From Psammoneis japonica (taxonomy: Eukaryota): DNA of 64,000 nt. The first letter of the stretch is position 1. Every line of letters begins with the position of its first letter. Location of the stretch: contig QPGO01000057.1 of the NCBI GenBank assembly GCA_008632985.1, positions 124,001-188,000 on the forward strand. Reading direction: 5' to 3'. Positions 4,657-60,716 of this stretch are shown here, piece by piece. The notes below the pieces were generated by a model. It made no database searches, was not told where the DNA came from, and worked only from the letters and a program-made list of their open reading frames with translations. A program made the translations under genes and the position numbers.

Positions 4657-4680
4657 TACATATCTCAAAGGAAGACATCA

Positions 4681-6152: not shown

Positions 6153-6279
6153 AAGCAGTCAAACTTAACAGAATATCTCAATCGAGAGGATGACACTATA
6201 AGGAATGCAGAAGCCAACGCCATTCGTATGCGTTTTCATCTCCGTTTCTATCCTATTGATCGCCCTAAGCACAAAGTTT

Positions 6280-10550: not shown

Positions 10551-10811
10551 CTTCGCTAGCTGGCCTGGAATGAAGGAATCTAGGGCCCTAATGAAACAAT
10601 TTGATCACGAAAAGACAAACACCCATGTAAGATAGACGGACGCAAGCAAAATAACCGCCGGTCAACAACAAAAAGACCGCGCAAACCGCAAACCGGAGAC
10701 CGCGAAGACGAAGAAGCCGATGGCCGGGCACTCCAACATTATCATCGCACCTACCGGCACTATTGACCACGACATCGATAACAGATCTGTTCCAGAATAG
10801 TGCACACCATC

Positions 10812-11981: not shown

Positions 11982-12206
11982 GTTCAAGAAATGCCGGCTA
12001 CGGTAGTAGTGCAGCCAGTAGATATTGTAGTTACCACATGAGTGAGTCACTCCAGAGACCGATAGTAGGTAGCTAAAGTATACCTTTTAAAATTGTTTAC
12101 TCTGCGATTTTAGCCACCAACTTAATTCTTCAATCGAGAGATAGAGCGATCCATATGCGAACGATGTCGTCTATCTGTCATCTGCCGAGCTGATTTCCTT
12201 TTTACA

Positions 12207-14376: not shown

Positions 14377-14403
14377 CTGCTGCTGCTGCTGCTGCTGCTG
14401 CTG
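14377..14403. repeat. (CTG)n microsatellite
   Basis: About nine CTG units. Confidence 0.9.
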
Positions 14404-34500: not shown

Positions 34501-34821
34501 GTCTTGCTGTTCCCTTGCTTGTTCGACACACGTTGTTCCCTTTTCTTCGCACAAGAAAGCTCGAGTTTCAGAGCATTCTACAGTGACAACTCATGAGAAA
34601 TCTTCATCCTCATCTTCTTTCCCTTGCTCTGCCAGCTTTCGATTGTTTCTCCGACCGTTGATGTTCCCGCACATTTCATGCATGTCATCAGGGATCTGCT
34701 TCTCTTTTGGCGTGCGACGATTGCATCGCTGCATCAACAGCTCTTGCAGACTGTCATCAGATGACACTTGGATCAACAAAGCAGCCAACAAACAAAAGAT
34801 TTCCAAATGCCGCACCATCAT
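31590..34821 (-). pseudogene. Subtilisin (S8) protease pseudogene with signal peptide and C-terminal hydrophobic tail
   Basis: GKGVKVAVLDSGIDCTH (canonical IDYTH), QGHGMAVAS (HGT), GASFLAPVVAGAAA (GTSxxAP), IAAGN. Multiple stops and shifts. Confidence 0.88.
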
Positions 34822-34879
34822 GGCACTGTGAAGCAGGGGCATGCTTGCTTGACAGACAAGTCGACGGCGACAGAGAGTG

Positions 34880-35804
34880 TGAATGGGAAATGCAGACAAT
34901 GAGCCGTCGAAAGGATGAATTCTACGAGCATTTCATCGAAAAAGCCCTCGTTGCTCTTGAGTTCATCAATTGGTTGTAAAAAGTCAGCAGAAACAAAAGG
35001 TTGGACCACGGTGTGTGCGTTGAGCATGTCGAATCATTTCTGGAGATGAGAGACAAGTCAACTCCACAAATCTGTTTGGCTGGCACTCCGGCCTTTGTCA
35101 GAGACGGCACCAAAACGCCTGGTCCACAACCTGCATCCAAGCACTTGCCGCCACTCCCAATCGCATCGGCAATGATGGAGCATGCGTGATTGACCCGTTC
35201 TTGCATCTCGGCTGGCATGTTTCCTGTTGGAGCATGGGCGGCCTTTGCATCAGCCGATGCATCCCAAGTGAGCCTTTGGAACAGGTTGTGCAGCAGCTTG
35301 TCTGAAAGTTCTGATGGATGTTGCTCACAAAGGGCACGCAGCTGTTCCTTGGCACGTCTTGCGCCCTCCATGTCTTGGGGAGGTAACTTTGTTTGTTGCA
35401 AGATTGGCATCTTCAAAATGTGTGCATCCCATCGTTTTGCTTGCTGGCACAATTGAGCAGCTGTCTGAACATGCTCTGGCAGTTGCTCATGGCTTTCTGA
35501 ATGCGCTCCGATGTGCCACAAGCCACATCACCACCACATTGATCCAACAATTGTTCCTTTGCACATTTGATGTCCTTGGTGCTCTTCTTGTTTTGTGCCG
35601 GAGCTCTTCCCAAAGCCTCCACCTGCGCCGCCTCCAAATCCCTGGGCACACAAGACAACGCGACGTCTTGTTGATGTCTTCAGAAAACATGGTGATGCTT
35701 GCCAAATCCGCGATGCAAAAAAGCCATGCACACCATTGCCAGAGCTGACGCCAAGCAACAACATGAAAAAAAAACAGAACAACGCATGGCGGGTCCGATC
35801 TCAT
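34880..35804 (-). pseudogene. Class I SAM-dependent methyltransferase pseudogene
   Basis: KCLDAGCGPG motif I and ICGVDLS...SPEMIR motif II, with frameshifts. Confidence 0.75.
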
Positions 35805-37099
35805 GGATGATTTGTGATGAGAACGATGGACGGTGGCATCATTGCATCACATCATCACATGTTGTCATCCAACATCACACATCGCGCATGCACGCGCTCA
35901 CAGGAGGCAACGAGACGAGAACAAGCAGCAGGCGCATGCTGCGGCACAAAGCAGCAGCCACACATCTGTTGAAAGGGTGGTGATGGCACCCTCAAAGATG
36001 AGCACCTGTCAGAAGCATCTTTTGCCAGCGGCGCTGCTTTTGTGGACAACCAAGTTCCTGTCCACACTGCAAGCAGCCTGCATCTTTGCGAGGTTCTTTG
36101 AACAAGAAAGGTCAGTGCCGGAGTGCACAAACATTGCATGCTTGCCTCTTTGTGGGAAGTGGTGGCTCCGAGTGCACTCACCACAGACATGATTGCAGGC
36201 CCTGGGATGACCCACAAAAGTTCTTCTCTTTGCCCAGTTTGCCAGCAGGGCGGCACACTCCTCACACATTTTGTTGTGGAAAAGGCAGCCAACATTGGCA
36301 GCGCATTGGCTGGGAAGGCAGCAGCACATGTTGTGGGACTTTCATGAAGAGACCCATGGACCATGAGCTGAATGCTTTTCCCATTGGGCACCAGACAGCA
36401 ACAGGATTTTGTGCTTGTTGTCCCATCAAGAAGGGCTGGAAATGTGATGGCTCTTGCCTCCATTGGAATGCCGTCTTTGCTCGTTGGCCACTGTGATTCT
36501 GAAAGAATGGCTGCAAACAGATTTTGGTGGATTGATCAAGTGGCTTGCAGGCACTTGACTGGAAATTGGGTGCCAGATGCAGAAACAGCAGAGCCCTGGT
36601 CAAATGAGTTGCAAGAGGACACAAACACATGCAAAGCACTCCCCCAGAATCTCCCTGTGACAGGTGCAATGTTTTTTTTTTTGCTGCTCAGAAAAGACAT
36701 GCAGCACAATGACTCAGGGGTCACCCAACACTTTTCATCCAAAGGCAAAGAAGCTGTGCTGAGTGAGGATCTTGATGATTGCTTGAGGCCAGTGAACCAT
36801 TTTCAACAAAATTTGCATCAGCAGCGACAAGGCCTTGCAATCTTCTGAACTTGCCAATGAAGGCAGCAACATTGCAGCCACTGCAAAGATCAGTTCCTGC
36901 ATTGCCAAGAGGCCAATGTGTCAATGCACAGCAGCCAAACCTCCAATCATTGCAAGCATCAAAATGTTGAAAAGAAAAAACCAAAAGAGGGAGGTGGCAA
37001 GCTGTTGCAAGACACAATCTCCATGTTCAAAATGAGCATGACATTGAAGTGTCAACTGCACACATGAAATGGGAGAGAACAGGCACCACAATCATTTGC

Positions 37100-40000
37100 T
37101 GATGAAAAAAGAAATGATGCAGAAAAACACAACAAGCTCAGAAGGACAAAGACTTTCATGTCCGCCAAAAGAAGAGCTGCTGAGGCTCTGTTGTGGGGAT
37201 TGGGGATGCAAGGAGAGCAATGAACTGCAGGCAAGTGATTGGCAAAATTGCCAAAGCTGATGCAAAAGCTGGAAATTTGCTGAAGGCAATGATGCCATGC
37301 AGCAAAACAAGCTGCCAATGGTCATGCAAAATGCAAAGCAAAGTGTGAAAGAATGGATGCACAGCATGAGCAACTGCAATGGTGCTGAGGACAATGACCA
37401 TGATGAGCACAGCAAAGCATTGGAGACAATGGGCCTGGCATGGTTGGCTCTTGCCATCATGCCATGGCATTTGGCTCAAAAGCCAAGCATGCTGGGCATG
37501 CTTTTGCTGTGTGCCAGACTGTTGCGCCAGCTGAAGACAATCTTCGGGTGGGCCTCTCTGCAATGCTGCTGGGTGCATCAGGCCCAACCCAGAGGATGCA
37601 ACCCAATGCACAAAGTCTGCGCATGCTTGACAGCAGGGGTGCGGTGGTGCAAGGAGGTGGGGATGTGGGCCAAGCACCAACTTGAGAGTGGGTTGTGTGC
37701 TGAGAGAGCCCCCTTCAGCAACAAGTTGAATCTTGAGCACCACACACCATGCTTGCTGCAGCTAGCCAGGGCAGTCAGCACCAGCCAAGTTTCCAAAATC
37801 ACCACTGTAAGAAGATGGGGACTGCCCCAATGCTGGTGTCCCAGCCATTTTGCAAACATCTGGCACACAGCTTGTTGTTTTCTCTGACAATGAAAGTTGC
37901 TTTTGAGGAGATGTCTGAAGCAACATGTTGTTCTCTGACTCTCCCTCTCATTGCATGGTTGAAAGATCTTGAGAGTGCACTGCATCATGCTGGTTGAAGG
38001 TCAGTGGCCTGCGCAAGATGGAAAAAGAGGCAACATTGCCTCTTGCCAAGAATGCGCAACACCAGTGTCTCTCCAACAACCAACTCTGGGTGGAGCAAGG
38101 GTGTGAGCTGACTCCAAGGCAGCTTCCAAGTTGGAGTCAATTCCACCCAAGAACTCCACAGCCTGAGCCAAACAGCATGCCACCAAACCACCAACACAAC
38201 TCTTGGCTGTTCTTTGCACAGCCCTTGATCCACTGAACTTGCTGGAAGCATCCAACTCAGATTTGCACCCACTGATCAAAGACAACAGCTGGCTGCATCA
38301 GTGTGGGAATCCAGGTTTCATGCTGCCCATGTGGTTTGCCTTGTCCGCATCCACCAAATCATGGTGATCCTGCTCAAAATGTGAGCTGCTCTCACATGTC
38401 AGCTCATCTTTGGCAGAAACTGTGCCACACTCCTCCTCACTGTGCAAGATCGTGCATTTTTGCTTCAAACCAGCACAGAAGCAGCAGAAAGGGTTGTCCC
38501 ATTCTGTGCTGATGTTGACCTGATCAGCACACATGACAACAAATGGCTCAAGAAAGTGCAGTTTGGACACAACTCTTGGAGCCACTTGAGTGCATGGGCC
38601 TGCAAGCCAATGCCAACAAAACAAAACAAAACAAAATTGCAGCCTGCACACCTGGCCAAATCAGCAGCAAGGTGACCTCTCCAACACATTGTCAATGGTC
38701 AGAGGGTGCAGCATTGTCAAAGATGCCCCCCCTGATGGCATCCTGATTGTTTTGCAAAAATTTGATGTGGCTTGTTGTTCTCTGACTCTCACCCCTCATT
38801 GCATGGTTGGAAGTTGAGCACAAGCAGCACAGGCAAAGGTTGATGGCCTGCACAGGAAAACAGAATGAAGTGGCCTCACTTTTTGGAAACCAATCTTCCA
38901 CCTGTCAGAGGCACACCAAAATTTGCAACACAACTGGTGCCCCAAATGAACAGCCCAAAAGAGCACAAGGAGGTGAGACAAACTGGCATCAATCCTCACC
39001 AACTCCACAGAGCCCAAGCCAGACAAGAGAATGACACCAACCCACACAACTCTTGGTCACTCAGCAGCTCCTTCTGCTCTAAAGTTCTCACTTGAGACAT
39101 CCATCACATGTTTGCAACTGCTGTTCAAAGACAATGACATCAGTTTGTGGGACCCAATTTGCAGACTCTCGCCCATTCTTCATCTGGTTGTCTGCCAAAC
39201 AAGTCATGGAGATCCTGCTCAAAATGTGAGCCTGTCTTCAGCTCTTTCCTCAGATCCTCAGAGACTGTGTCACACTCACACTGTGCAAGTTTGCACACCA
39301 TTTCTCTGCTGTGACCAAAGAAACAGTCATGGAGTGGATTGTCCTGTTTTGTGCTGATGGTGGCCCAATCAATGTGCACACAACAATGAACAGCTCTCTC
39401 CAGAGAGTGCTCAAGCAACTCTCGGAGCCACTCCAATGCATGCTGGGTGCCTGCGTAAACCACCAACAATGCCAACAAAACCAAAACCATGGCCATCACA
39501 CCTGACTGCATCAGTGGCCAGTTGGTCCACCAACACATTGTGAATGGCTGGGGAGAGCACAGCAGTGCCAGCCTGCTGAGCAGCACACAGGTGTGCAGAA
39601 ACATGTTGGGTCAGTGTCCAGAGTGCAGGAAGAAGTGTGCTTGCTGCTGTGGGATGATCTCTGGACTCAACATGCCTTGGCTTCTCTTTTGGACAGAGCA
39701 GGCCAGGCAGATGCCCCTGGGCATCTGCCAGTGGAGCATTGGGCATTGGGTGAGGTTCCCGTGCACAACCTTCAGGGTTGTTCATCATCCTGTGGACACC
39801 CACTTGTGCAAGCCTGTGCTGCTGGGCAACCCAAATTTTGCAAGAAAGAATGTTTTGACAGCATCTCAACTTGCAACATCTCAATGACTCCATGTGCATC
39901 CTGGAGGAGGGCTCTTGCCCTCTGAAACAATGCAAGTTGTGCAAGAGGATGTGTGTGCTCTGTGTGCCATCCAAGCTGACCCCACAACCCAACTCTGCAT

Positions 40001-40600
40001 GTTGCCAAAAGGGGAGGGGGGACAAGGCCAGTTGCAGCAGCGTGGGGCACTCAAGTTGGCACACACCCAGCCCAAGAAATTGTCTCATCAGGGTGCGGCA
40101 CTCCTCTCCAGGAGGTTCAAACCTTTTGACATGTCTCAAGCACTTGCTGCCATGCACCCCCCCTCAACCCAGCCAAGGTGTTGCAAAAGTGCTGGTGCAG
40201 ACCCACTGTGCACAATCAGCTTCACTTTGTGGGTCAACGATGTGGAGACCACCACTCCCCAGGTGCTCAAAGCACGTGATGGGTTCCATCAGAAGGTGGT
40301 GTGTCATCTTTCTGACAAGCAGGAGCCACACAGTCTCTCTTCCTGATGCCAGGAGAGGATCACACGGAGCTCCACGTGTGGAGATTGCAGGCCAGTGTTT
40401 GATTGGATGCTGCATCAGGGTCCAACAGGGTGCACTTGTGGAAAGCATTTCCACCCAACCAGCCACCTGGATCTTTGAAAAGGTGCAGAGAGGCTGCCAC
40501 CAGGGTCCTCCACCAGATGCCAGCTCTGGTGTGGAGGAGGACACACACAGTGGGCAGGGGAGATTTTGTCTGCAATGGAATGGGTGTGGCTCAACAGCAG
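37100..40600 (+). mobile_element. Decayed non-LTR (LINE-like) retrotransposon with two tandem RT-core segments
   Basis: DLESA; GVEQGCELTP; FCADV and LFCADGG (YADD-derived); GLQANANKTK; SLCGSTMW (LYGSETW-like); DGFHQKV. Confidence 0.65.
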
Positions 40601-41823
40601 TCTAGCGTGCGGCCCAGGGGGGGCACCTTCTCTGCTTGGGGATCAACATCCCCAAGTCAAAGGCATGGGATGGGGCTCCCGGCTCCGGTGGCGGATTACG
40701 CCATGAAACGGTGGAAACGCACTCTGCCATTGTGGCTGCTGCGGTGTGGTGGTGGCCCCAAATTCGAAGGAAGAATCGGATGAGTCGTCGCGTTTGTTTG
40801 CGCGCCGCCACACATCACGTGCACATCATCACCGCACCTATTATGTACCTCTCGGCATTCACCATGAGCATGTGCTGAATGAAGTAGCGGCTGCAACCAA
40901 GACAACATAACATCCGCAACAAGTCATGGCACCACAAAATCACGGCACATGTGCCCAAGGAATACCCGTAATACCCGTAAACAAGAAGCGTTCTTCAGCC
41001 AGGTTATTAGCACTAGAAGCTAAGCGAGAAGGTATCAAGTCTGCAACAACAACACGCAACACTTACAAGAGCAAGTTTCTTGATTTCGGAATTCTTCCGA
41101 GTGAATGATATAAAATCAAATCGAGTTGTACTGAACAAGTTCCGTGGGGTTATATTTGTGGATATCCAACGAAGAACGGGGACTTGTATGGTGGTGGTCA
41201 CTACATAGAATCGGCAGGCAGTGACACACTTCAAGGCCGAGCGATTGTGCAAGCCACTCTGAAATTTGCTTCTCCCGGTAAACGTACACTTGATTTTACG
41301 CCGTGTAAAAAGGGCTCTGTGCCATATAAGAATGGTAATCGCATGTATGCGTGTCCCTTGCATCATGCTAAACGTTTTGAACGGGTACAACGACACGGGT
41401 ATCGTGACGGTGAAGTCGAGCTGGAGCCCTTTTGGAACAAGTACGAAGCAACTCTAGAGTGTAAGGATAGTTTGGAGGACAATTCACTAAAAAAAGCAGA
41501 ATCAATGAGTCCTTGTGTCCATAAGAAACAAAAAAAGATAAGGTAAGGAAACTGTGAACCAGTTGGAAATGATGAATCGGTCTTTTTCCTTCGTGAACCG
41601 TGAATGACATGTGATCGAGACCGGCGAGTTGTCGGCAGCGATTTGGCATTGAACAAAACGGCCATGTTTTGAAATGGGCTTATTTCATAGTTTTGAACTT
41701 CTAGTAGAGGAGCAATCAACTCAGAACAAATGCTACGCAAGCACAGTAGAAGGTACAAGCGAAGGCAAGGCGACAACAGAGCAACTCGGGTTGCCGTCGG
41801 CTTTATTTTTTGCGACACAGATC

Positions 41824-45549: not shown

Positions 45550-46221
45550 CTATTTTATGGCTATTCTGTACAATGAAATTCAGTGTTGCTTCGACAGAGC
45601 ACACTCCACTTGCTGCGCATGAAACATTCGAACGCACTTTCCCACGTCACACACTGGCACCAGACATTGCGGGCCAGTTTTTGGCCAGGACAATGAAGCA
45701 GAGCAAAACAAGACATCTTGGCATTGATAGAACCACAAGTTCTCAGAATCACCATTCAGCAATTCATCTTGTTTCAATTTGCTGGGAAAGCCATTTGGTG
45801 GATGGCGACAAGGGCTTCCACTGCGAACCCCGAAGCATGCCCCGTTTAGATGCGCCGCCAGCAGCAGAGTGACAACAACCGTACAATGGCTCACAAGTAA
45901 AAACAGTGCCATTAAAATGCAACTGACATCTGAAGAGAGTGTAAGACTCAGGTGATGTTTGCAATGGCAGACATGCAGTTCTTGCGCCTCTCATCAAACG
46001 GGTGGGGATCACGCACCCAAAGCATGGTCGACACCCCAATGCTTCACAACGCCACGGTGCATGGCGGCAAAAGGTCACTCAAAGTAGACTCAAGCTCCAG
46101 CGTCTTTGTGTGCATGGCAAAACTTTCTTTGAAACAGCCCCTCTGTCTCGAACGTTGTTTCCGGTCAAGATTGTCCTGGCCGATTCCGACATCCGGATGT
46201 GAGGTGGAACAAGCTTGTTGC

Positions 46222-47345
46222 TGACACGTCTCTCTTCCTCCATAAAATTAAACAGCGGTGGAAGGGCTTCTCCCCAGGGAAGACGGGTGCCTTCCAATCA
46301 AAGCTTGTCAAAAAGGCGTGAGCACACCCTTCAAGAGGCTTGATGCGATTGTCCAGAGTGTGCGCCAGAGTGGATGCTGTGCATTCCATTGCTTCTTCCG
46401 GCATCCTGTTTCGAAATGCCTTTTCCCACACTGACATCCCTTTGTCTGGGGAAACTTGAATTCAATGTAGTTGGAATTCATCGAGCTGATCTCCTTGCAT
46501 GTTTGGGGTTCCTAGAACCTTGATGATCTCTGCAAGCTGGTCGACACCCGAGTGGCCAGTGGGAAATGGAGTTGTCCCAGCAGCAGCTCCACTCCAACAC
46601 ACCCCTCCGACCAAATGTCAATGGCGGTGGTGCACTCTGTCGACCCGAAAATGAGTTCGGGTGCACGGCAGCATCTCAAGCAAATGTGTGATGCATTGGG
46701 TTCCCCACGAACAAGCCTCTTTGCACTCCCAAAGTCACACAGCTTTTAAGCTGCTGGTTTCTTGGGTCACCAGCAAATTCTGCAGCTTGATGTTGCGGTG
46801 GCAAATCCCCAAAGAGAGGACATGTGCCAGCGCTCGGGAGAGCTGGTGCAGGCAGAGCTTGACACACAAAGCAACGGGAGAGTGGCTTCTTGGATCTCTG
46901 ATGGGTCCACCCAACTGAGTGCACAGTTTCAGGGACATGCTCCAAAACCAGATTGAGGCACAGCTCATTGGGTTTTTGCCCTGCAAACGAAGAAGTCCAA
47001 CCGCGTGACTTCAGCGCTGCACACAAGAACAAACATGCCGCCACTTTTGCAAATCGAACAAAATCAACAAATCAACACAGGGCCCTGCGTGAAAGTAAAA
47101 GCAGTGCTTGAGTGCAACAATGTTGGAACGGGGATCCACAACAAGTTGACGCATGATCTGCAGCTCTCTGTTCTTGAAGCGCTTGTCATGAAGCACCTTT
47201 TCAATGGCGACAACATCTCCTGTTTCAACAACAGCCACTTGAAACACCACACCGAAGGACCCATTCCGACAACTCTTTCAGTTGAATGTGAAATCTGTTG
47301 CTCTCCCCCAGCCGCTTTCAAAGAAACAATTGATTTTGCTCGAGT
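46222..47345 (-). pseudogene. GSK3: GSK3/shaggy-like kinase pseudogene
   Basis: [85 protein letters not shown]. Frameshifted. Confidence 0.93.
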
Positions 47346-47940
47346 GGCACCATTGGACCTCACACAGTGTGACTGATTCTTCTCCTGAAATTTTGCTTGA
47401 TGCATCATTTTGGAGATGCAGTCACATGCCACACCAACGAGACAAAAGAGCACTCGCTTTTTCAACTTGTTCTTGTTGCTCTTTTTCTCCATCTGCAATG
47501 CTGGACCACTTGTTGCTTCAGCTGCAAGCACCTTGCAGTTTTGCATCTCGGATCGTTTCCATGCCCATTGTCTGGATGCAGGTGTGAGACTGGAGAGCTC
47601 TCTTGCTCAAGTGGCATGGCATGTGGCATGTGGCATGGGCTTGCCATCATTGCGTTGTTTTTTGTGTGTTTTTGTGGTGGGGGAACTGCCTCTGCCGGCA
47701 CCATGCCGTCACACCCAAAATTCCACCCAAGTGGCAAAAAAAAAGTTTTCTGCTGGAAAGTGGAACTCTCGCATGCAGAAATGTCAATGCGGAGACAGCA
47801 TCTTCTAAAGAATTCTGCCGCACTGTGCATCCACTGTTTGTTCCACTCAGGTGCAGTGGAAGGCACAGCAGAATTTTCGGAGCCAAAAATTCTGCCCTGC
47901 GCGTGCAGTGTGCATGCAGACAAAAGGTCATTTTTGTCAT

Positions 47941-48308
47941 GCCCTTTGTGACATTTAAAGGCTGCAACACGTCGCCGTGATGCGCTGGCTCTTGTTGGTG
48001 GCTGTGTGTTGCACTCCTCCCCATGTGTCACACGTCCATGCGGCTCTTTACTGGCACACACTGACACTGCACGGTTTTGGCGGAACAGTGTGGGTACGTG
48101 CAAAGGAACACACAGAACTGCACAGAGTTTTGCGCGTTCGACAGTGATCAATGTTGCTGCAGACAACTCCCACTCAGGGTTTCGAACCCCTGGCCTCCTG
48201 CCTGATGGTTGCGATGAACCACTCCGCTGTGAACGCCCTTTGTGACATTTAAAGGCTGCAACACGTCGCCGTGATGCATTGACTCTCGTCAGCAGCTGTG
48301 TGTTGCAC
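47941..48308 (+). repeat. 74-bp direct repeat (47941-48014 and 48235-48308)
   Basis: GCCCTTTGTGACATTTAAAGGCTGCAACACGTCGCCGTGATGC identical in both copies. Confidence 0.9.
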
Positions 48309-49007
48309 GCACCCCTTTCGCGCGATCTAAACCATCTGTCCTTGGTGAGGTCGGGTGCGACGGCAGGAACAAAAAAAATGCTCGAAAGTTCTGCTCGTCT
48401 CAATGCGGCATCTCAACCATGAGCGTTGCCGCGTGCAACCCCAGCAACTGCACCAATGCCAACTGCATCTGTGGTGGCATGGCAGTCAGCACTCACAGGC
48501 GTCCTGAGTGCAGCAGAAACCTTCACACTTCTTGTGGGAAAGCAGACGAACGACTTGCACTGCTTTCAACTTTGACAAGCTCCAAAGCACCCACTTGAGA
48601 TTGCTGTTGTGAGTTTCATGTTTAAATGGCACTGAACAGTTGCGTTGGCCTAAGAAACAATCAGCACCTTGCTGCACTTCCACCAGCTTGACAAGAAAAC
48701 AAGCTGCTCCCCAGCACGGAAGGCACGACCAAGGGTTGCTTGATCTTAAAACAGATTGTTCCGCATCCTTGGCTTGAGACACATTTTTTAACAACTGTTT
48801 GGTCCACAATGATCTTGGCACTTTTGCTGCCATGGGTGCTGAGTGGACCTGCGAGGGACAATGAGACTGGAGAAACAGTGAGGAACAAACTCTGCCACAC
48901 TCGACAATCATCAAACGCCCAAAACATGAGATGTGCACAACAAACAAACATTTCCATCACACATTTGACACCATCATTGGCAATTTTTTTTGTTCTCACC
49001 TTTGCAG

Positions 49008-49201
49008 TGTCAGCCCACCTGCACATGTCGTGTGATGGACAGACTGTGCATGGATGATGACCGGACCATCTAGATTGACGAGCAGATCTCTCTGAGATCT
49101 GCTTCTCACTTTCTCATCTGCCAGTGCTCATGTTGTCACAGTCCTGGCACTTCAGGGAGTCTTTCACACCTCTGTCATCATTGACCTTCGGCACTCTGTC
49201 A
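49008..49201 (+). repeat. 5' LTR
   Basis: Gap-free alignment with 55374-55567. Confidence 0.95.
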
Positions 49202-51480
49202 GGTTGTGGCCTTGTGCTGTGCCACAGACCTCTGTGCCAAGCTTTCCGTTTTGATTCATTTGTTTTGTGAGCCGATCGAGCAAGCCTCATCTCTTGTTCC
49301 CGGAAGGATTTTTATCTCGCTTTCCCGGCATTTTTCACGCTCATAGAAACACACCAGATTTCTGCACGTGCATGACCAAAAATGTTTTCACGAAGTAAAA
49401 CCATGGCGTCTCCCGACCTTGCAAAGGCCGCTCCCAAGTCTGTCACAGAGATCTGTCATGAGTTCCAATGACAGGATTTGAACAGGATTTGGGTGCGCGC
49501 GACATGTCGCGCGCTGTTTAGTTTACCGCGCACAGTTTTGTGTGCTTCAGTTTTGCGCGTTCGTGCGCGATGCAGTTTGCTTTCGAGCCACAAGGCTCAC
49601 AAGAACAATGACAGCAGCCCGATTGTGCCGACTTGCACGTCTTTCGTCTCTGAGTGGAGACTCATCTGCTGTTTAGACAGCAGCAAGGAGTCATTGTTTG
49701 AATTCTTGCCATTTGCTTTCAATTTCTGTCAGATTGACAGTCTTGCTCATTGTCAACCCATTGAGCAACCGCCATTGTCGTCGTTGATTTACCGACGACG
49801 CTGTTCCATTCTGTGTGGACCTCCGTGTGTGCTCTACGTACATCGGCAAGTCTGCGCGCATTCAATGCCAGGCATCGGCAGGAAGTTAACGTCGCCGTCA
49901 AGTCTCCTTGCCGCTGGATGTCTGGATTGATTGTGCTGCCTTTTGTCGCTGAAGACACACATTCAACGGTCATGTCCAAGTCCATCCTTGATCCTCATCC
50001 CTTGACACACCCATTCAACGGTTAACGGTCAAGAACCCCACACATTCAAGGATCTTCGTTGCTGAAGACATGCACATGTGCACATCTTCACGGCCAAGGA
50101 CTTGAACCCACTCTTTGGACTGCGGCTTTGCCACCACTCTACAAGCACACCAAGTCTGTTGCACCTGATCTACCCCGGACCACTGGTGCTCTGCAGTTCC
50201 ACCAGGTCCACGAGGACGACTGTGAGAGCAAGCAGCCATGATTGCAGCCCACGTTGGGGCAAGGGTGTTTTCCCGCGTTTGTTCGTTCGTCCACAGCACC
50301 TGACGCCTGCGTCAACTGGCCAGCCTGATCGAGAAATCCAACCGATGTAAAACAAGAACGGTTCAGGGGTCTTGTCCACCTCTGGTCAGCTCACCTGCAG
50401 GGGTTTGCAACCCGCTGCTCTGCTCGCAAGCAACCCAAAGCGCCACCAGCTGCGGGTTCGGACGTGCCGGCACAACTCTGTGGACCGGACAGGAAGTTTA
50501 GCACTTGACAACAAATGGGACAGCACACCCCGGCGACTTCTGATTTTTTAGGATGGTTCAAGATTTCAAGTCAAGTCCATTTCAAGCCAAGTTCCAAGTC
50601 AAAACTCTGAGTCAAGATCATGCTCTAGATTGGCTCCTGTCTTTTGTTTCTACTGCACCGTCCTCCGTCATGGTTCTCACGCGACAGCAACAAACCGAAA
50701 GCTTCAAATGCATTCTAGGCACTGTGCTCAATCAAGACAATGACAGCCCTCTTTGTTCTGCCCTGTCCATCAATGGGATTGAATCGTGTGAGGAATTGTT
50801 CACGTTCTCACCCACCCAAATTGATGCCCTCACTTGCAGAGACGGCGCCAATGCAGTGCCTTTGCCACGGACCCACAGAAACCTCCTAGCAGCTTTGATC
50901 AGCTTCTGCTTTGTCAAAGTTTGCAACGGTGATGATGTGACCAATGAACCCCAGTTGCTCACACCCGACGAATTTCGCAACTGCCGCCTTGGTCCGGACT
51001 GCTTGACCTCTCTAGCCACTGGCGCAGCACCCTCTGCACCTGTGCCGAGTCCCTTGCCATCCAAACCAGGTGAACCCAGTGCCATTTTGACACCAGCCTT
51101 GCACTGTGCCGAAACTCAGGTGTCCCCTAGAAGTGGTGTCAGCCGCGCCCCGCATGTCTTGACCAACCCGCCTGCAAGCAACCTCGGCCCAGTGCAGGAT
51201 TGCAGCCCTTGCGCAGGCCCGCACTTCAAGACCAGTTGGGACACTCCACCCATGGCTTCCAAAGCTGCAGTCTTTGCACCCCGCAAACCATGTGCTGCCA
51301 ACCTCCACATGTTGACCGCTGTCACCCTTCACAGTCTTCGTTTGGGAAGTGATGGAGATGACAACTTGCTTCTCGCATCTCCTGATGGGGAGCCTCCTTT
51401 TCCCGTCATTGAATCTGTTCACAACAGTTCAACCGGTTCATCAGATGGGGAGTTCAGGACATCCAAGCAGCTTCGTTGTC

Positions 51481-52245
51481 TTTGGATCCTCCAAGCATCG
51501 CACCACGAGACGAGGCCTCCTGATCGGATGCCTCAAGTCTCGCACCTCAAGACTGGGCCTCCTGATTGGATGCCTCAAGTCTCGTGCCTCAAGACTGGGC
51601 CTCCTGGTTGGATCCTCCAAGTCTCGCACCTCGAGACTGGGCCTCCTGATTGGATGCCCCAAGTCTTGTACCTCGAGACCAGGTCTCCTGATTGGATGTC
51701 CCAAGTGTCGCACCTCGAGACCAGGCCTCCTGATTGGATGCCTCAAGTCTCGTGCCTCGAGACTGGGCCTCCTGGTTGGATCCCCCAAGTCTCGTACCTC
51801 GAGACCAGGCCTCCTGATCAGATGCCTCAAGTCTCGTACATCGAGACTGGGCCTCCTGATCGGATGCCCCAAGTCTTGTGCCTTGAGACCAGGCCTCCCA
51901 ACTGGACTCTCCACGTCTCGTGCCTCGAGACCAGGCCTCCCAATTGGATCCTCCACGTCTCGCACCTCAAGACTCGGCCTCCGGATTGGATCCCTCAATT
52001 CTTGCGCCACGAGACCCGGCCTCCTGATTGGATCCCCCAAGTCTCGCACCTCAAGACTTGGCCTCCTGATTGGATCCCCGAAGACTCGTGTCACAAGACT
52101 GGCAAGTCCTTTTGGATCCCAGAAGTCTTGCAGCACGGGACTGGTTGCCCCAATCAGACATCTGCAGCCCTGCATCACAAGATGTCTTGCTCCAATCCGA
52201 TCCCTGAAGGCTTGCACCTTGAGACTCGTTTCTCCAATTGGATCA
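51481..52245 (+). repeat. 42-bp tandem array, about 18 units, inside the LTR element
   Basis: Unit reads ET(G/R)PPD(W/R)MPQVS(Y/H/C)L. Confidence 0.97.
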
Positions 52246-55200
52246 GTCTCTCAGGAGATGCAGCTGAGCTTGCAATCGGATTGGTGGAACACAAGACCAC
52301 CGCTTGTGCCTTTGAACTCATGCTTGCTCTGTTCCCCAAGTCGTGCAAACACCATGCCACCCTGCACGAGCACTGCTCTGTTTTTCTGGCAGCAGCCCAG
52401 TGTGGCAACTGTTCCAAGAACCAACAGACGGCCATCAGTCTTTACGACCTTTGCTCAGGAAGTGAAGGCGATGTCAACTTGTTTGCATTGTCCTGCGATG
52501 TTGCCCCGCCATTCAACATTGTCAACCAGAGACTCATCTGCCATTTAGACAGCAGCAAGGAGTCATTGTTTGAATTCTTGCCATTTGCCTTCAATTTCTG
52601 TCATCCAAGCACATGGCACTCCACCACACGTCCATGCGTCCCTGAACAGGCTGCACGCGGATGCCACATTGGATCTGGATCTGTTCTTCAACGATCCAGA
52701 ACACACTTGGCCCAAGAAGAATTTTGTGGACTCATTCCATGAGTTTCTCATAAATCAAGCGATTCCACCTCACACGGTGGATCCTGTGGACATGCAGTCC
52801 ATCAAGACGATTGTGGATGAAGCTCGTTTTTGCGTTGTGGACCCTGCCAAGTCTCACGCGATTCGTTTGATGCCTGAAGGTCTCTCAACCATGATCAAGT
52901 TGAATCTTCAGCAACACGAGCAATTTCTCTACATTCGTGTGTCAACGCACCATGTGCACTTCAATCCTGATGTGACATGGAATTACAGAGATTGGAAAGA
53001 GTTTTCTCTGTCCCCACACACATCCAAACAAGCTCACGTGGCTCCACAGTCATCGAGTGTGAATCCTTCGTTGATGTGCATGGACCATTTCACAACAACA
53101 TCGCGTCATGTTGTGCACAACCACACTCGACAACTGCAAAGCATTGTGGAGGCACTCTTGCGTGTGATGCACCCCAGTGTCGACCTCCACAAGAACATCT
53201 GCCTCATCCAGCGACGAGCATGAATTCCTCGTTGATTGGTGTCTGCGATTCCGTCACAACCGGGCGTGGTCCTTCATCAGCAACTGCGCCACTCCATGCA
53301 AACACAACCATGCATCCTGGAGGCACTGACATGCATCTTCCTTCCAATTGTGTGCCACATGCAAAACAAGGAGCTCTTGTGCCTCTTTCAATGACGAGTG
53401 CACCTCTTCCCTCTACAAGCATTCATGATCTTGTTGATGTGTCATGCAACTCCTCATTGGGGTCTGCATCATCCATTGTGCCTGCCACTTTGTCTTCTGG
53501 AGAATCTGCTGCACCTGTCATGTCTGTGGATCAGGGTGTGACTCCTGACATCAAGGCCACTGGGGAGATTGAAATTGGTTCTCGTGTTTGGGTTCGAGAG
53601 CCCGGTTCCCGTCGCTCCAAGTTGCACCCCGTCCCAAAGAAGGGCATTTTCCTTGGTCATTCATCTGACACCAACAAGCACGTCCTGTGGCAGGATCCTG
53701 AAAACTCTCAGATCAAGATGGACACGAATGTGCACTTCAACGAGGGCATGGACGGACCTCCTCGTGCAAAGGATCAACGCCATCCAGACCTTTCATCTTC
53801 CGGTGACCGTGACGGATGTGAGAAAGCCTCTTCACTCTTTTCCTCACCTCCGGCCTCGTCTTTGACTGATCATGCATTTGAAGATTCCAAGATGGACGCC
53901 GCCACCGAGTCCTCCAGCCAAGATGATGCAGATGTGACTCAAGATGAAGGTGCAATCTTAACGGGTGCTCGGATTGATCCTGTGAATGCCACTGCACTGG
54001 ATGTCAAGTCTCCCATGTCTGTTGTGGTTCCTGCGAGCAAGACATCTGCAATTGTTGGCACCGGTTCACTTGCATTGTCCATCGGATTGGTGGCATTTCC
54101 CGCCGACCTCCATGCTTGCCTGCTCAAGACCCCAAAGTTTTTTGTGTCTGGCAACCCCATTGTTTCATGCAATGGGGCTCGCTTCAATCCATTGGATGGA
54201 TCACACTGCATTGCCAAGGTCACCCTTGAGCTGTTTGCTGCCTCTGTGGCACCGTCGCATGATGCGAATGATGCCTGTGGATGCAGCCAGAGCTCTGTTG
54301 GTTGGTTGTCAGGTTACTTCGTCCTTGGATTTTTGGCTCGGCCGTCGTTAATTTCGGATGTGCGATGCTGCCATTCCTTCCATTGTCCGAACAAGACCAA
54401 CAGAAGCGGGGTTGTTGTGAAAGAGGGCCACCGAGTCTCACTGCCTTCCGCTGTGCCATCTCTTTCCTCCGTTGTCAGGACCATTGTCACGTCTGTTTGC
54501 ACTTTTCATGGTGCTCCAGACCTGCCCACCATCGCTGATGATGATCCTTTGTTTTCTTGTCAAAGGAGGGAGCAACATTGTGCAGAAGAACTGTGCAAGA
54601 TTGACAACCACACCAACTCTTCCAGTGTGTTGCCTTCTTCCTTTGCTGTCAAGACCGCTGTGGTGTTGAGCGGTGTTTTTCCTGGTGGTCCCGACCTGTC
54701 GACTGTCCCCGACGATGACCCTGCATTTTTAGATCAGGGGAGGGATTCCCACAGCACAGAGGAAGCATGTCAGGCTGTTGAGAACATCACATTCAATCAA
54801 GAAACCGTGCTTGATGACCATCATTTGAAGGCCTTGCGATGCTCACTTGCGATGCGTCACTGTTCTTCCGACGTTGAGTGACTGCACGATGCATTTTGTT
54901 TGTCCAATGTGTTCTTCAGGGGTGACACATCCGGTGGCAGAAATGTTGTTTTGTCAGGTGGATTGCTGTTGCTTCTTTATTGCCGCGCTGTCCGCCATGG
55001 TGGATTTGCATTTTCTGGCTCCATCCCTTCCGATGAGATTTGGTGACAGCATGACTTGCCAGAATGTCTTTCTGCGATCGATTGCTTGTTGATTGACAAA
55101 TTCATTTCTTTGGTGCAAGACTCGATTTGTCTTCAAGATTTGTTGGAAACTGCCTTTGATGTTTTTGTCGAAGACTCCGTTGGATCAGCACATGTGCCCA

Positions 55201-55373
55201 GCTGCCTTTGGAGATTTTTTGGAGATGTCATTGCCCTGTGCTGTGTGGTTCCTTTACGATTGCGAGTTGAGCCTGGACACTTTGTTTTGTTGTCCGGTCT
55301 GTTTGCATCATCCCTGTTCTTTGTTTTGATCTGCGCTGCTCTCCATGTTGAGACATTGCAGATCAGGGGAGGG

Positions 55374-55567
55374 TGTCAGCCTGCCTGTGCATGTCGCATG
55401 ATGGACAGACTGCACATGGATGATGACTGGACCATCTAGATTGACGAGCAGATCTCTCTGAGATCTGCTTCTCACTTTCTCATCTACTGGAACTCGTGTC
55501 ATCACAGTCCTGGTGCTTTGGAGAGTCTTTCATGCCTCTGTCATCATTGACCTTCAGTGTTCTGTCA
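55374..55567 (+). repeat. 3' LTR
   Basis: Preceded by the PPT at 55365-55373 and followed by the TSD. Confidence 0.95.
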
Positions 55568-56488
55568 TGCAGTCCGAAGCCAAGCTTGATTGTGAAAGCT
55601 GCTGTGTCAGATGCGGCAGTCCTGTCAGTGTCCTCTCTGGGAGCAAAAGTCGTGAAACACCCAAGAGGTGAGGAGCAGCAACAAATCCACTGCAAGCATC
55701 ATTTTTTTTCACAGTCACACCAGTCTGCAGCGGTGTTCATGCCGTTGCTGCAATGGGTGCCGGGTGGACCTGTGAGCGACCACAAAACAACAGAAAAAGT
55801 GAGAGAAAAGCTGTGCTCCAGAAAAAAGCATCAAACGCCCAAAAGACGGGCTTTGCAATGAGCACAAACACAACCATGAGATTTTGAATGGTTCCTTCAG
55901 CGAGCATTGGCATTCTCACCTTTGTCCTCAAATTGCCAAGCAGAAATGTCATCGCTGCTGCTGCCGACGCGATGGCGCCGCATGTTTCCTCTCTTGCAGC
56001 AAAAGTCATCAAACACCCAAAAGGCAAGGGCAAGCAAAAAATCCAAAGCAAGCATTGTTTTTCTCACAATCGCATCAGTCAACATTGGCATTCATGCCTT
56101 TGCTGCAATGGGTGCCGAGTGGAACTGCGGGCGTTCAAAGGCCATGGTTCGTCTTGGCGTTTTTTTTTTGGCTTCAACTCCTCTCGTGGGTTTGCGCAGG
56201 TTGATCACCAGCACGTGGCTTCTGCACTGATGGCCATGGCTTGGTCTTCTTCCCCATGGGATGAGCACTGCTCTCCACAGGGTAGAACTGAGGGCAGATT
56301 TTTTTGGATGCATTGGCCCGGCAGTGTTTCGGAAGGAAGCAGCCAACTTTTGCAACTCGGGACTGCGAGAGATGCGAATCGTGCGAAACTTGGTCCATCC
56401 ACAGATGCGTGAAGAAAATGAGCACTGGTGCTGCGCTGCACAGCACCGGCGCTCGTCAGCACACATCACACATCATCAAAGTCACATC

Positions 56489-58700
56489 ATGTCATCACTG
56501 TTCAACACGGCTCGGAGCCACCAAGACTCTGTTTTGTCACCTGACCACTGGGTGTCAACAGACACGGTCTCACCACTGAGTGAGACACAAAACACCAAGT
56601 GTGGCAAGTGTTGCTGCTGTCACCAATCCATGCGCCAAGAGAAAAAGTCTTGGCCAACTGTTGCATCCACCGGCAACAGCGGCACCACAGTGACAAGTGC
56701 CGCAAGTGCTGCAGCAGACATTCTCGCGAGGGCAGATGGAACACAGCTTTCCCGAGGGTCGGCAATCAAACTTTTTGAGTGGCATGAAAAAGAAAATGAT
56801 GAGAGTCTCTCTTTGACAAAATTGGGCACTCTGAATGACGAGGAAGCGAAAGGCGCAAGGCCATCATGAAGAGCTTGATCAGTTTGTCTTGGTGGATGAA
56901 AAATGCGCCTGTTCTGCAACAAAATGACACTGGGAAAGCCATGGGTGAGCGATCCACAAAACAACATTTTTCAAGCATCAAAGAGACAATGAAGAACAAA
57001 ACTCTGGCACTGGAAACATGGGACAACCACGAGGAAAATTGGTGCACCGACCTGTGAGACAGCCTGGGCAAGGGTAAAAAGCACAGCCTTCTCAAAGGCA
57101 AAGAAGAATTCAAAGAAACAACCTGTGAGGCACTTCTAATTTGCAATTCTCTTAAAAAGCTGTGAGTTGGCCATAGAATGTGGCATGAGATGCTTGGTGT
57201 TGATCTCGAATCAATCTGTAAAAATGTCATTCGTCAAGACAAGCCGGGTGCATGTCGTGATTGTGCAAAGCTCATGCTCACGTCTCTTGCAGTTGGCCGT
57301 GGTGGAGAAGTTACGTTTCTGTGCTGGAATGAGTTCCAGTGGGATGATTTGTTTCTTGCGGTGGAAGGTGCACGGACCAGAGTGAAGACCTTGTCGCAGC
57401 AGATGTTGCATTTCCAAGGGCATCATGATGGGTTCCTGTGCTGCATCCATTGGACCCTGGGAGCATTCTTTGCTGTGGAAGATGGCTTGTGCCGGCATGA
57501 CAGCTTGGACAAGAAAACAAAGCTGGCAAACAAGGCATTGTTCCCAGATCTTTGGTGGATTTCTGATGCAGCTGCAGCGGTGCAACTTGCAAAATCAACA
57601 AAGGAAAACTCGGACGCCCAGATGCATGTGTTCAATTCATCTCGGAGCATTTGCGTTGGCTCCAACACTGAGCTTTCAATTCATCCAGACATTGCACCAG
57701 AGGAGCAACGTCTTGCTGGTGGTTTCTTGGCTGGTGACAACATTGAGCTGCACACCAGAATGAATCCTTTGGCTGGAATGGTGCCGGCCAATGTGCTTGC
57801 GGGATTTGAGCATCCACGAGACATGGTGCATCCAGCAAGTCTGGATGCTCTTGTGGGCCATGTCACAGCAGAGGAAATGGACTGACTTGTGTCATGTCTG
57901 TGCCTCATGTTGGTTTCTTTATTTCAACCGGACGGCCGTCTTTGACCTCTCCTGCACAATGTGACAACCGCTAAGTTGGCAATGAAGTGCCCTGTTGTGC
58001 ACAAGGAGTTTGGCCCTGGGAATTGATTGGTGTGCAAATTGGTGTCCTCTGTTGTAAAAGCCAGGTTGGCAATGTCTCCAGGGGGAGGCACACTGCAAAT
58101 TGGTCATGTGGGCGGGCATCATTGACAAGGCCCACGAATCGGAAAACAGTCGGGTGCCAGATGCAGCAGACACAACTTTGACAGATGCAATCAACAAGCA
58201 GTCATGTGTGATCCAAAAACTTGTGCAGTTGAATTTGAAACTGCAGCAGAAACAAGCTCTTGTTGGATCTGAAGTGTCTGGACTGAAGACATTGACAACA
58301 ACCACATTCTTGTCGTCTGTTGTCACTGCGCTGAAGGCAGCGTTCTGTGGGCGTGGGCAGCTGAGGAGCCAGAAACAAACAACAACACTGAAGAACCCGT
58401 TGTGGAACAGGAATGTGCTCACAATGCCAGAGCTGACAAGATTTTGACAGCATCCTGGCTGCAGTTGCACATGAAACAGAGCATGCAGCATTCACCAACT
58501 TGACAAAAAGACAAGCTTGTCCAGCCTGCGGATGACAATGACTGGTGTCGGTGGCAGGTGCAATGAGTGTTGTGAAGCCAACGGGTGCATCCACCACAAA
58601 GGTGGGAAGAGGAGTCCTGCAGAGATGTCAACAGAGGGAGGAACAGGTGTCTTGACTTCATTCTTCTCAAGAATGAAGAATGCAGTGTCACCAGCATGAG
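56489..58700 (+). mobile_element. Decayed tyrosine-recombinase (Crypton-like) element
   Basis: AVGRGGEV (catalytic R), VKT, SSRSICVG (xxxR box with R->C), IELHTR (expected Y->H), ANVLAGF. Internal TGA stops. Confidence 0.6.
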
Positions 58701-60716
58701 CAAAGAAGCACCGCACAAGCACTGAATGATGGTGAATTGTTGCGCATTGAATGGCGCATTGTGTGGATGTGCTTTGGGTGCCAGCAGGTTTTGTTCTTTC
58801 AATTGCAGGAACTGTCATGCATCCCTCACCACCACAATCCTTGTGAGAACAAAGCAACAGAAGAAAAACCGTGCAAGCAACAAATGACAAACAACATGCA
58901 GTCATGTTGTTCTCCACTTGCATGCCAACTCTCGTGTGTCCCCTCTCATTGTGGCACTTCCAGTCAATGTTGTTTTAATTCTGCTGCTGTGCAAACTCTT
59001 GTGCACCCCCCCCTCTCTACCACAATCCTCGTTGAACAAAGAAAGGGAAGAAACACAGCACAAGCACTGAATGACACATTGCACAGAGGTGCACAACAGC
59101 AATTGCTGTTCTTTTGCTGATTCCACACAAACTCTTGTGCACCCCTCTCCACCACAATCATCATCAAAAATCCCTTTTCTGTGCTGAGCTTCACAACTTG
59201 GCAATCATCATCATGCACATGCTTGCTGAGTGAATCAAGTGGAAACTTGCAAAGGTTGTCAATGTCTGCAACTCTAAAAATGTTTCCCCTCTGACTGCCT
59301 TGTTTTGGTGGAGGAAACAAAAAACATGCAGTCACCAACATGAACAGACTCGCATTGGCGCAAAAGCAGGGCAGAGACACTTTGTGCCAGGCACAAAGGT
59401 TGCGCACGAGTTTGGCAAACTCTGCCTGCAGCTTTTTTGATGGGTTGCAGACCTGGTCATGTTCCAACCAGCCCTGTCACATTGCTGTGAGCGTGGCCTG
59501 CCACGGGTGCAGAAGCTTGTGCTGTTCTGGCCTGCCATGAATGGATCGGACACTTCAAAAGAAAAAGCTGGTTTCTTCTTTTTCTTCTGTGTCGACCGCT
59601 GCTTTTTCTTCCCAGTGGGTCTTGAAACTGAGGCAATGGCAACCAAAGAAGGATTGTTGCTGCTTTGAGCAGACGGGTTCCAGTCCCAGGTGGGACTCCG
59701 TGTGACATTGGGCCCGCAGAATTCTGCGTGTGAGCTCCACAGCAAATTTGCACTGCAACGAAAATGTGAATGATCGCCAACAGAAAAAGAGGCAATTTTA
59801 CGAACGCATCTCCTCCTCCACACTTGGAGCACATCATTGACAGTTTGCCCGGGTGCATTCCACCGACATCAAAGAACACACCCAGCGCATTTTTATTCTC
59901 ACAAATGTTGAAAATAGAAAGCCTTTGGCTTCGCAAAATGGGGAGCATGAAACAATTTTGTAGAATGTGACATGCAGAAATGTGCATGCGCGACACACGA
60001 CGCGATCCAAAAAACCATTGATGTCACAGTGCAGCAGCACGAGGTCCCACCCAGAGCTGGAACGCGTCAGCAACAAAATGACACTTGATGACGATGGCGA
60101 CAATGAACACAAAAATCAACCACCTCATTGACTTTCTGCAACACAGCACTCATCCCACAATGCATCACAGTGATGCATTTGACCTTGGAACAAACTTGTC
60201 ATTGGTCAACATGCTGCAGCTCCATCTCGTGTTGAAGAACATGCTCGATGAAGTCGTCAACTCGATGAAGGTGTGTCAGCGTCGGTGAGGCATCACCACT
60301 CATTTTCCGCGAAAAGTTCATGGTCGAGTTGAAGATTCCTTCGGCGGTGAGGCCGAACTCTCGCGAGCAATTTAGATTCGAACTTGGACATGAACATGTG
60401 GCCGCCGCTGGCGGCATCAGGAATCTTTCGCGGCCGCGAAAGTTTCGACGCCTTGGGCCCTTCAGACGGACGGAAGACGGACGTTTCTTTTGTTCTGACG
60501 TCATGCATCACTATTGGTCATTGCTACTGTACTCTACTGTAGCTGCCGTAGCTGACGTGGCAGGCGCAGGCGCAGGCGGGCCAAAGCGTGACTGAAAACA
60601 GCACTGCCAACTAAAATCTACACGTGTTATTTCTTGCTCATTTTTTTGTCTCATTTCACGTCTTCATTGCATACTTTTACTGTTACTCAGAGTACCAAAT
60701 AAACCACGAAATAACG

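Follow-up and report, generated by a model that had tools for sequence, protein, structure and literature searches.

Loss of tyrosine codons in a GSK3 pseudogene and TpA-purged blocks in a 64-kb stretch of the Psammoneis japonica genome

The DNA considered here is a stretch of 64,000 nucleotides from the diatom Psammoneis japonica (contig QPGO01000057.1, positions 124,001 to 188,000), to be referred to as the window. It contains a copy of the gene for the CMGC protein kinase GSK3, in which tyrosine residues that are conserved in other GSK3 proteins are replaced by cysteine or histidine. What process removes tyrosine codons from a gene copy, and is this copy its only target? The copy is a pseudogene, and it is one item of a 15-kb block, and of about half of the window, that has been treated in the same way and is nearly devoid of TpA dinucleotides (TA). 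This goes beyond the original prediction, which had been made for the pseudogene. A regional hypermutation of TpA to TpG or CpA, at the level of DNA, probably explains both the pseudogene and the blocks.

Identity of the GSK3 pseudogene

46146..47357, minus strand: GSK3 pseudogene, truncated at the 5′ end (frameshift-aware protein alignment)

Diatom GSK3 proteins were aligned to the DNA of the window with a dynamic programme that is aware of frameshifts and introns. A recognisable GSK3 kinase is present on the minus strand from 47357 to 46146 (1212 nt). The location predicted earlier, 46222-47345, is right, but the aligned copy is slightly wider. The closest diatom GSK3 proteins (P0051, P0096, and P0034) share 72-74% identity with the pseudogene over 344-357 aligned codons. 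Pfam Pkinase matches one fragment of it, and the named best matches of the kinase fragment are all from diatoms. A protein search with the C-terminal fragment gave no matches.

The alignment places one intron, changes frame nine times, and passes a single in-frame TGA (near 46300). The catalytic HRD motif is now HRN (ICHRDIKPQN to ICHRNIKLQN). The activation-loop tyrosine is also not found, as NVSYICSRYYRAPE is replaced by an altered 14-residue string. The HRD aspartate and this tyrosine presumably have functional roles in GSK3 kinases. With nine frame changes and a TGA, an intact frame with a start is absent, and the copy is therefore a pseudogene, as had been proposed. The strings on which that proposal was based are located in minus-strand open reading frames (ORFs): a 25-letter string in 46512-46745, ELCLNLVLEHVPETVH in 46676-47071, and KLCLHQL in 46735-47010.

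The 5′ end of the pseudogene is missing, since its likeness to a second GSK3 copy (see below) ends at 47315. The 30 nt that follow this break in the second copy have no other match in the 64-kb window, whether with up to 3 mismatches or by blastn-short, and there is thus no sign of a 5′ end shifted by an insertion within these 64 kb.

Loss of tyrosine codons

The reference set consisted of the 30 best among 67 full-length homologues, and a codon was considered conserved if at least 80% of this set have the same residue. There are 272 such codons, of which 216 encode the same residue in the window and 56 a different one. Among the 14 conserved tyrosines, six are now His (CAY codons, where Y is a pyrimidine), six are Cys (TGY), and only two are retained, whereas only 44 of the 258 other conserved residues are altered (Fisher p = 1.4e-7). 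The replacement of conserved tyrosines by Cys or His, the central claim of the original prediction, is therefore borne out for 12 of the 14. A transition at the TA step of a TAY codon can lead only to His or Cys.

Twenty of the 56 altered codons fit a single step of TA to TG or CA and 14 fit CG to TG or CA, in support of the rule suggested earlier (TA to TG or CA, and CG to TG); these shares are upper estimates, because the classifier takes the TA or CG reading if any synonymous ancestral codon permits it. The remaining altered codons need a transversion (10), another transition (9), or multiple steps (3).

The direction and the dinucleotide context of the change are observed at the nucleotide level, with 53 diatom GSK3 coding sequences of environmental origin as outgroups and conservation defined as presence in at least 90% of them. 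Ten of the 12 outgroup-conserved TA dinucleotides are altered in the pseudogene (5 to CA and 5 to TG). All other dinucleotide classes with more than one conserved site have 0-36% of their sites altered. These outgroups support an ancestor with TA, which had been deduced before from protein conservation. Overall, the pseudogene has 6 TA in 1212 nt, compared to an expectation of 42.0 based on nine genes of the window that are intact (Poisson, 5e-12).

TpA-purged blocks

The number of TA in 500-nt bins is bimodal along the window. Normal bins contain 11-33 TA, while those of five blocks contain 0-7, with the exception of bins that straddle an edge. The block edges were placed from single TA positions, and the ratios of observed to expected counts (o/e) are given with each block.

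4715..5920, no strand: TpA-purged block 1 (1206 nt, 3 TA, o/e 0.045)
7896..10556, no strand: TpA-purged block 2 (2661 nt, 1 TA, o/e 0.006; CG o/e 0.19)
12204..15563, no strand: TpA-purged block 3 (3360 nt, 18 TA, o/e 0.078; CG o/e 0.29)
31737..40838, no strand: TpA-purged block 4 (9102 nt, 15 TA, o/e 0.027; CG o/e 0.34)
45570..60511, no strand: TpA-purged block 5 (14,942 nt, 81 TA, o/e 0.089; CG o/e 0.57)

The five blocks total 31,271 nt (49% of the window), and the remainder is 32,729 nt. Their edges are sharp, both in the 500-nt bins and in single TA positions, and are resolved to tens or hundreds of nucleotides. The intergenic DNA outside the blocks is normal in TA, for example with 22-33 per 500 nt at 41-43.5 kb. 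Besides the GSK3 pseudogene, block 5 contains a tandem array, remnants of copia and RusA, and high-copy repeats.

The blocks have 118 TA (o/e 0.06) and 858 CG (o/e 0.43), compared to 1324 (o/e 0.59) and 1859 (o/e 1.01) outside. TG and CA are more numerous in the blocks, with 3253 versus 2261 for TG and 3319 versus 2401 for CA (6572 versus 4662 for both). When scaled by length, the deficit of the blocks is 1147 TA and 918 CG, or 2065 in total, and the surplus of TG and CA is 2118. The TA process is faster than the CG process, as TA is nearly exhausted (o/e 0.006-0.089) and CG has an o/e of 0.19-0.57. The two strands are affected equally, as seen from the TG and CA counts of the blocks and from the six Tyr to Cys and six Tyr to His changes of the pseudogene.

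The same loss of tyrosines is found in a second pseudogene, located in block 4.

31701..34817, minus strand: subtilase-like pseudogene (13 homologues aligned; 8 in-frame stops relative to the best, P0242)

Its translation has 1 Tyr, compared to 26 in P0242. All eight of its conserved tyrosines are altered (4 to His, 3 to Phe, and 1 to Cys), while the fraction among the other conserved residues is 42 of 248 (p = 1.3e-6).

None of 1194 1-kb windows in 80 environmental diatom contigs with GSK3 loci (368,429 nt) is TA-poor, the minimum o/e being 0.28; this set is gene-centred and often transcript-derived, and gives no evidence that other diatoms lack the process.

The blocks have no TAA or TAG, and TGA is their only stop codon. 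They contain 146 frames of at least 90 aa in all six frames, one of them with 732 aa. These long overlapping open frames are due to the loss of TAA and TAG, and gene callers would predict many false genes there.

Duplicated sequences within the blocks and across an edge

5781..6015, plus strand: purged part of duplicate B (its first ~235 nt, inside the zone of block 1)
49007..49201, plus strand: repeat pair, copy 1 (partner 55373-55567)
55373..55567, plus strand: repeat pair, copy 2 (partner 49007-49201)
51482..52111, plus strand: 42-nt tandem array with 15 units (repeat positions variable)

A 1.8-kb tandem duplication, with copy A at 2862-4661 and copy B at 5781-7619 (84% identity), reaches across the right edge of block 1. 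By the alignment of the two copies this edge is located at about 6015, within the duplicated segment. Inside the purged zone (228 aligned nt), duplicate B keeps only one of the nine TA of copy A, while 51 of 71 are retained outside the block, over 1560 aligned nt (p = 7e-4 for the contrast). The divergence of the two copies is similar in both parts, 14.9% inside and 13.8% outside. The duplicate is altered only where it lies inside the block, and the process is therefore regional, acts on DNA, and is not triggered by repeats. The duplicated DNA includes an ABCF-type gene's 3′ end, as well as a frame of 259-290 aa in two paralogues that both look intact (3898-4677 and 6769-7641, minus strand).

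The two copies of a 195-nt repeat in block 5 show 10 double differences of TG versus CA, 7 single transitions, and only 1 transversion. Nearly all TA of the pair is gone, at a divergence of just this one transversion. In comparison, the normal tandem duplicate has just 2 TG/CA doubles in 1856 nt. The pair may represent the long terminal repeats (LTRs) of the copia-like element that lies between the copies. A core of about 60 nt is identical in the two copies (49065-49125 and 55431-55491). It has an inverted repeat, GCAGATCTC...GAGATCTGC, and retains TA (in CTAG) and CG. This core may be a conserved functional part of the element, or its identity may be due to chance.

In the tandem array, one position of the unit is CA in 6 units, TG in 5, TA in 3, and CG in 1, giving Tyr, His, or Cys in an ORF. 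Another position is CG in 9 units, CA in 5, and TG in 1. As repeat copies differ at the edited sites, editing came after their separation, in place, and independently in each copy.

The second GSK3 copy and the retained intron

46982..47088, minus strand: intron retained in the pseudogene, GC..AG (protein alignment and gap of the X2 contig)
45893..47315, minus strand: stretch matched by a second, expressed-looking GSK3 copy (X2 contig, record 11)

Contigs from three public runs of one sample were matched to positions 44000-50400 of the window at 80% likeness. Contigs of the first run (X1) reproduce the window at 45584-46098, 46639-47123, and 47099-47744, with 0, 3, and 1 differences, respectively, at a depth of about 55-68. 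These contigs repeat the letters of the window, which makes a miscall artefact of the assembly unlikely. X1 also has a second contig of similar depth (54 of 121).

In the second run (X2), record 11 is a contig of 1849 nt with a depth of 414. It has 124 differences and 18 gap letters relative to the window over 1311 nt, with 99 of the differences at 45893-46977 and 25 at 47090-47315, and is unlike the window past 47315. This contig jumps positions 46978-47089, with five letters between the two sides, which fits an intron at 47088-46982. The second X1 contig crosses the intron interval with just 27 gap letters. These contigs indicate that a GSK3 copy of about 91% identity, an allele or a paralogue with the same intron, is present in the organism and probably yields a spliced form. 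The comparison with a functional GSK3 paralogue that was envisaged in the original prediction can thus be made in part, with a copy from the same sample. Judged by the peptide at its loose 5′ end, the second copy is absent among the 120 kinase-fragment proteins listed. In X2, the exact sequence of the pseudogene is not found in any contig and 47424-47851 is uncovered, which says nothing about expression.

A likely intron donor near 47088 reading GCAGG had also been predicted. The intron is aligned here at 47088-46982, and the window has GCAGG at 47088-47084, consistent with an ancestral GTAGG. As the intron is retained, the window copy is a 5′-truncated DNA duplicate and not a retrocopy.

The bases of the second copy were compared for the 27 rows in the GSK3 stretch among the 40 listed of 755 difference rows. 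In 7 of these 27 rows, a TG or CA of the window corresponds to TA in the second copy, and in 2 rows to CG. At 45960-45963, for example, the second copy has TATA and the window TGCA.

Proposed mechanism

The blocks are gene-poor domains, about half of the window, that are filled with repeats and pseudogenes. A:T to G:C transitions would occur there at nearly every TpA and produce TpG or CpA, either strand being equally likely to be hit. A slower decay of CpG to TpG and CpA would proceed alongside in the same domains. The GSK3 fragment would be an intron-bearing DNA duplicate of a gene that persists elsewhere, and it would have landed in such a domain or been engulfed by it. Dead on arrival, it would have been edited together with its surroundings, with the result that its TAY codons read CAY or TGY. 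An RNA intermediate is disfavoured by the equal treatment of the two strands and by the retained intron.

The TpA step may well be enzymatic, and its simplest chemistry would be adenine-to-inosine deamination by an enzyme of the TadA/ADAT2 type. The natural tRNA target of this family is an A preceded by U. The domains are possibly silenced, methylated chromatin, by analogy with transposons of other diatoms, which are methylated at CpG (PMC9998398 and PMC5124317, in their available text). The CpG decay would be expected if the domains are methylated as those transposons are.

The survival of TA in the blocks relative to normal DNA depends on its neighbours, being 0.36 for TTAA, 0.16 for CTAG, 0.075 for GTAC, and 0.012 for ATAT. 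For mixed tetranucleotides it is roughly the product of these values. The data suggest an order T > C > G > A for the 3′ neighbour of the edited A.

A more specific form of this mechanism is possible, and we put it forward tentatively. A diatom adenine deaminase of the TadA/ADAT2 kind, targeted to chromatin domains, would convert every TpA on both strands to TpG or CpA in a region that has been silenced, at a rate at least two orders of magnitude above background, with the preference T > C > G > A, as an old defence of the stramenopiles, alveolates and rhizarians (SAR). If this is true, silencing would be irreversible, as Tyr codons, TAA and TAG stops, and TATA-like signals would be erased. 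The process would also be the mirror image of fungal repeat-induced point mutation (RIP), and would be shared by SAR lineages because the signature is also found in a rhizarian (see below).

Comparison with known systems

Directed DNA editing as a defence is established for cytosine, by fungal RIP and by APOBEC enzymes. For adenine or thymine at TpA, the literature searched holds a single 2026 preprint on one chlorarachniophyte (bioRxiv 10.64898/2026.01.13.699255, Mettrop et al.), which the diatom case now joins. According to the available part of that preprint, two regions of integrated viral DNA in Bigelowiella natans acquired 231 single-nucleotide mutations, of which 230 are A to G or T to C, all 230 at TpA. 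The rate of de novo TpA to TpG or CpA changes in the integrated viral DNA is about 1000 times the background, and 124 clusters depleted of TpA and enriched in CpA and TpG are found in the genome, with an enrichment in transposon domains.

The B. natans system, which acts on DNA of nucleocytoplasmic large DNA viruses (NCLDV) and virophages, resembles the present one in that only TpA to TpG or CpA changes are reported, in bounded regions beside normal DNA, and that a single-copy region is hit there too. There are several differences, as far as the available text of the preprint goes. B. natans is a rhizarian, in another branch of the supergroup than diatoms. The o/e of TA is 0.006-0.089 here, near saturation, and 0.45 in the NCLDV region of B. 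natans. Host-derived pseudogenes are among the targets here, unlike in B. natans, and CpG decay is found in the same blocks, while none is reported with the TpA changes there. The rate in B. natans was measured in mutation-accumulation lines, whereas the window holds a historical footprint, with the repeat pair (at least 10 converted sites versus 1 transversion in 195 nt) as the only, indirect, hint of a rate. No report of TpA hypermutation in diatoms was found in the literature searched, and it is not mentioned in the available text of PMC2806351, PMC4504042, PMC9998398, PMC5124317, and bioRxiv 10.1101/2025.10.24.684338.

Fungal RIP (in Neurospora and others) is similar in that transposons and gene duplicates are inactivated by dinucleotide-specific transitions, with blocks of aberrant composition as a result. 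It changes C to T at CpA (or TpCpG). RIP thus converts CpA to TpA and enriches TA, whereas TA is destroyed here. Moreover, RIP needs duplicated DNA and mutates both copies, in contrast to the duplicate that is spared outside block 1 and the second GSK3 copy that has TA. The decay of 5-methylcytosine at CpG agrees with the loss of CG to TG and CA, which is limited to the repeat-rich blocks (o/e 0.19-0.57 versus 1.01). However, no more than 918 of the 2065 lost dinucleotides, about 45%, are covered by it, and it yields neither the Tyr to His or Cys changes nor the loss of TA.

The ADAR and APOBEC footprints in animal retroelements originate in RNA or cDNA, prior to integration, and do not extend past the elements. 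They share with the present case the clustered, neighbour-biased transitions fixed in genomic copies of mobile elements, but editing here took place after integration and across element borders, and an intron-bearing duplicate of a gene is among its targets. TadA and ADAT2-ADAT3 deaminate an A that follows U or T, which provides a lead only, and there is no such gene in this window. Such deamination is the candidate chemistry put forward for B. natans, where BjADAT2 and evolved TadA are cited as relatives that act on DNA (bioRxiv 10.64898/2026.01.13.699255, available text).

The diatom case adds a second organism with this signature, saturated over half of 64 kb, and places constraints on the mechanism: it is regional and not repeat-triggered, acts after integration on each copy, and is faster than CpG decay. 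Purged blocks will mislead homology searches and the dating of transposon insertions by LTR divergence. On the other hand, diatom genomes can be scanned for silenced domains in one line by the o/e of TA, and the enzyme could be sought by knock-out, as diatoms are transformable.

Alternative explanations

Several points weigh against regional TpA hypermutation, in addition to the leniency of the codon classifier described above. The 27 listed GSK3 rows lie mostly in the 3′ untranslated region (UTR), and 9 of them are transversions. TG/CA double differences between the pseudogene and the second GSK3 copy are found in the 3′ UTR at 45949-45951, 46025-46026, and 46032-46033. They imply that the same ancestral TA or CG was changed in the second copy too, and there may be more than two GSK3 copies, or CpG changes in both copies. 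The neighbour order comes from 118 surviving TA, with 1-18 per tetranucleotide, some of which are possibly new mutations. The public run that repeats the window possibly derives from the very material that was assembled. Both the targeting and the chemistry are inferred. Finally, the TpA and CpG signals may be separate processes that share a target, as the available text on B. natans reports no CpG decay.

The regional process could also be at work on the other base of the step. The thymine of TpA would be modified, for instance by a TET/JBP-type enzyme that oxidises it to 5-hydroxymethyl- or 5-formyluracil, and would then mispair with G, giving T to C. TpA is self-complementary, and T to C and A to G changes at this step are therefore indistinguishable by sequence. 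The context data can equally be read as an order A > G > C > T for the 5′ neighbour of the T, and thymine modification in TpA contexts is known from dinoflagellates. Such an enzyme or base was not found documented for diatoms in the literature searched, however, and the window offers nothing that bears on the question. We consider thymine oxidation less likely than adenine deamination, but a serious alternative. A RIP-like defence, in which duplicated DNA is recognised via homology and then mutated, would explain why a gene duplicate, transposon copies, and a tandem array are among the targets. We judge it improbable, as the 1.8-kb tandem duplicate is spared over 1560 aligned nt and purged only in the 228 nt within the block, the second GSK3 copy still has TA and a spliced contig, and the unique-looking stretch 47424-47851 (depth ~100-120) is purged as well. 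The direction is also opposite, as fungal RIP creates TpA.

ADAR favours an A after U and a retrotransposon is present in the blocks, and editing of double-stranded RNA from A to I, with subsequent reverse transcription and reinsertion, could be considered for this reason. But the pseudogene retains its intron, the purge is unbroken over 15 kb of mixed content and ends inside a duplicated fragment, the copies of the repeat pair differ at edited sites, which places editing after their separation, and the strands are hit equally. The RNA route is thus very improbable. It is hardly more credible that the blocks are old non-coding DNA that simply decayed neutrally or is constrained in composition. 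They are gene-poor and old enough for many indels, but the intergenic DNA outside keeps normal TA (22-33 per 500 nt at 41-43.5 kb), the repeat pair lost nearly all TA with one transversion, and the minimum o/e among the 1194 control windows is 0.28. The least credible explanation is a sequencing or assembly artefact, with modified heterochromatin bases being miscalled and the real DNA keeping TA and CG. The outcome of TG or CA would fit strand-dependent miscalls that the consensus resolved at random. Against this, the De Bruijn contigs of X1 (depth ~55-68), a run that may itself have supplied the assembly, repeat three stretches of the pseudogene with 0-3 differences, and the pseudogenes bear frame changes, stops, and transversions next to intact genes with clean frames.

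Other contents of the blocks and their surroundings

52971..54878, plus strand: open frame with a remnant of a copia-type integrase C-terminal part (Pfam SH3_retrovirus, E 5.5e-9)

A Pfam search with the 146 stop-to-stop frames of the blocks gave five credible remnants, namely of a kinase, a copia integrase, a subtilase, a methyltransferase, and RusA. Both pseudogenes of host type (GSK3 and subtilase) and repeated DNA, in the form of the copia remnant and the high-copy repeats, are among the purged targets. The X1 depth is 4x10^4 to 3.9x10^5 at 47852-48279 and 49350-50400, which identifies these segments as high-copy repeats.

The remnant of a RusA-like Holliday-junction resolvase is located in block 5 (58967-59476, minus strand; Pfam E 1.6e-7, PHROG E 2.2e-9). 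It is the only PHROGs match among 45 ORFs of the blocks, and no viral hallmark was found among them. The RusA family is mostly bacterial and phage-borne, and that part of block 5 may therefore be foreign. Weak matches are a class-I methyltransferase fragment in block 4 (34925-35527, minus strand; E 1e-5) and PHD-finger-like fragments in block 3 (12996-13367 and 14558-14827, plus strand; E ~0.005-0.008).

The intact genes near the blocks have long clean frames. An intact STRAP-like gene of the window has named best matches that are all from diatoms, with at most 70% identity; like the kinase matches, this points to a diatom host with no near sequenced relative in the collection searched. Matches in a protein atlas were to bacterial UXS clusters and do not inform on the taxon. 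Immediately to the left of block 5 (43636-45549, minus strand) there is an open frame of 637 aa that is internally repetitive (RYTR.IPVL..., DHWRGWVRTPAA). The run contigs have a depth of 800-2900 and many variants at this position, and the frame therefore belongs to a multi-copy family.

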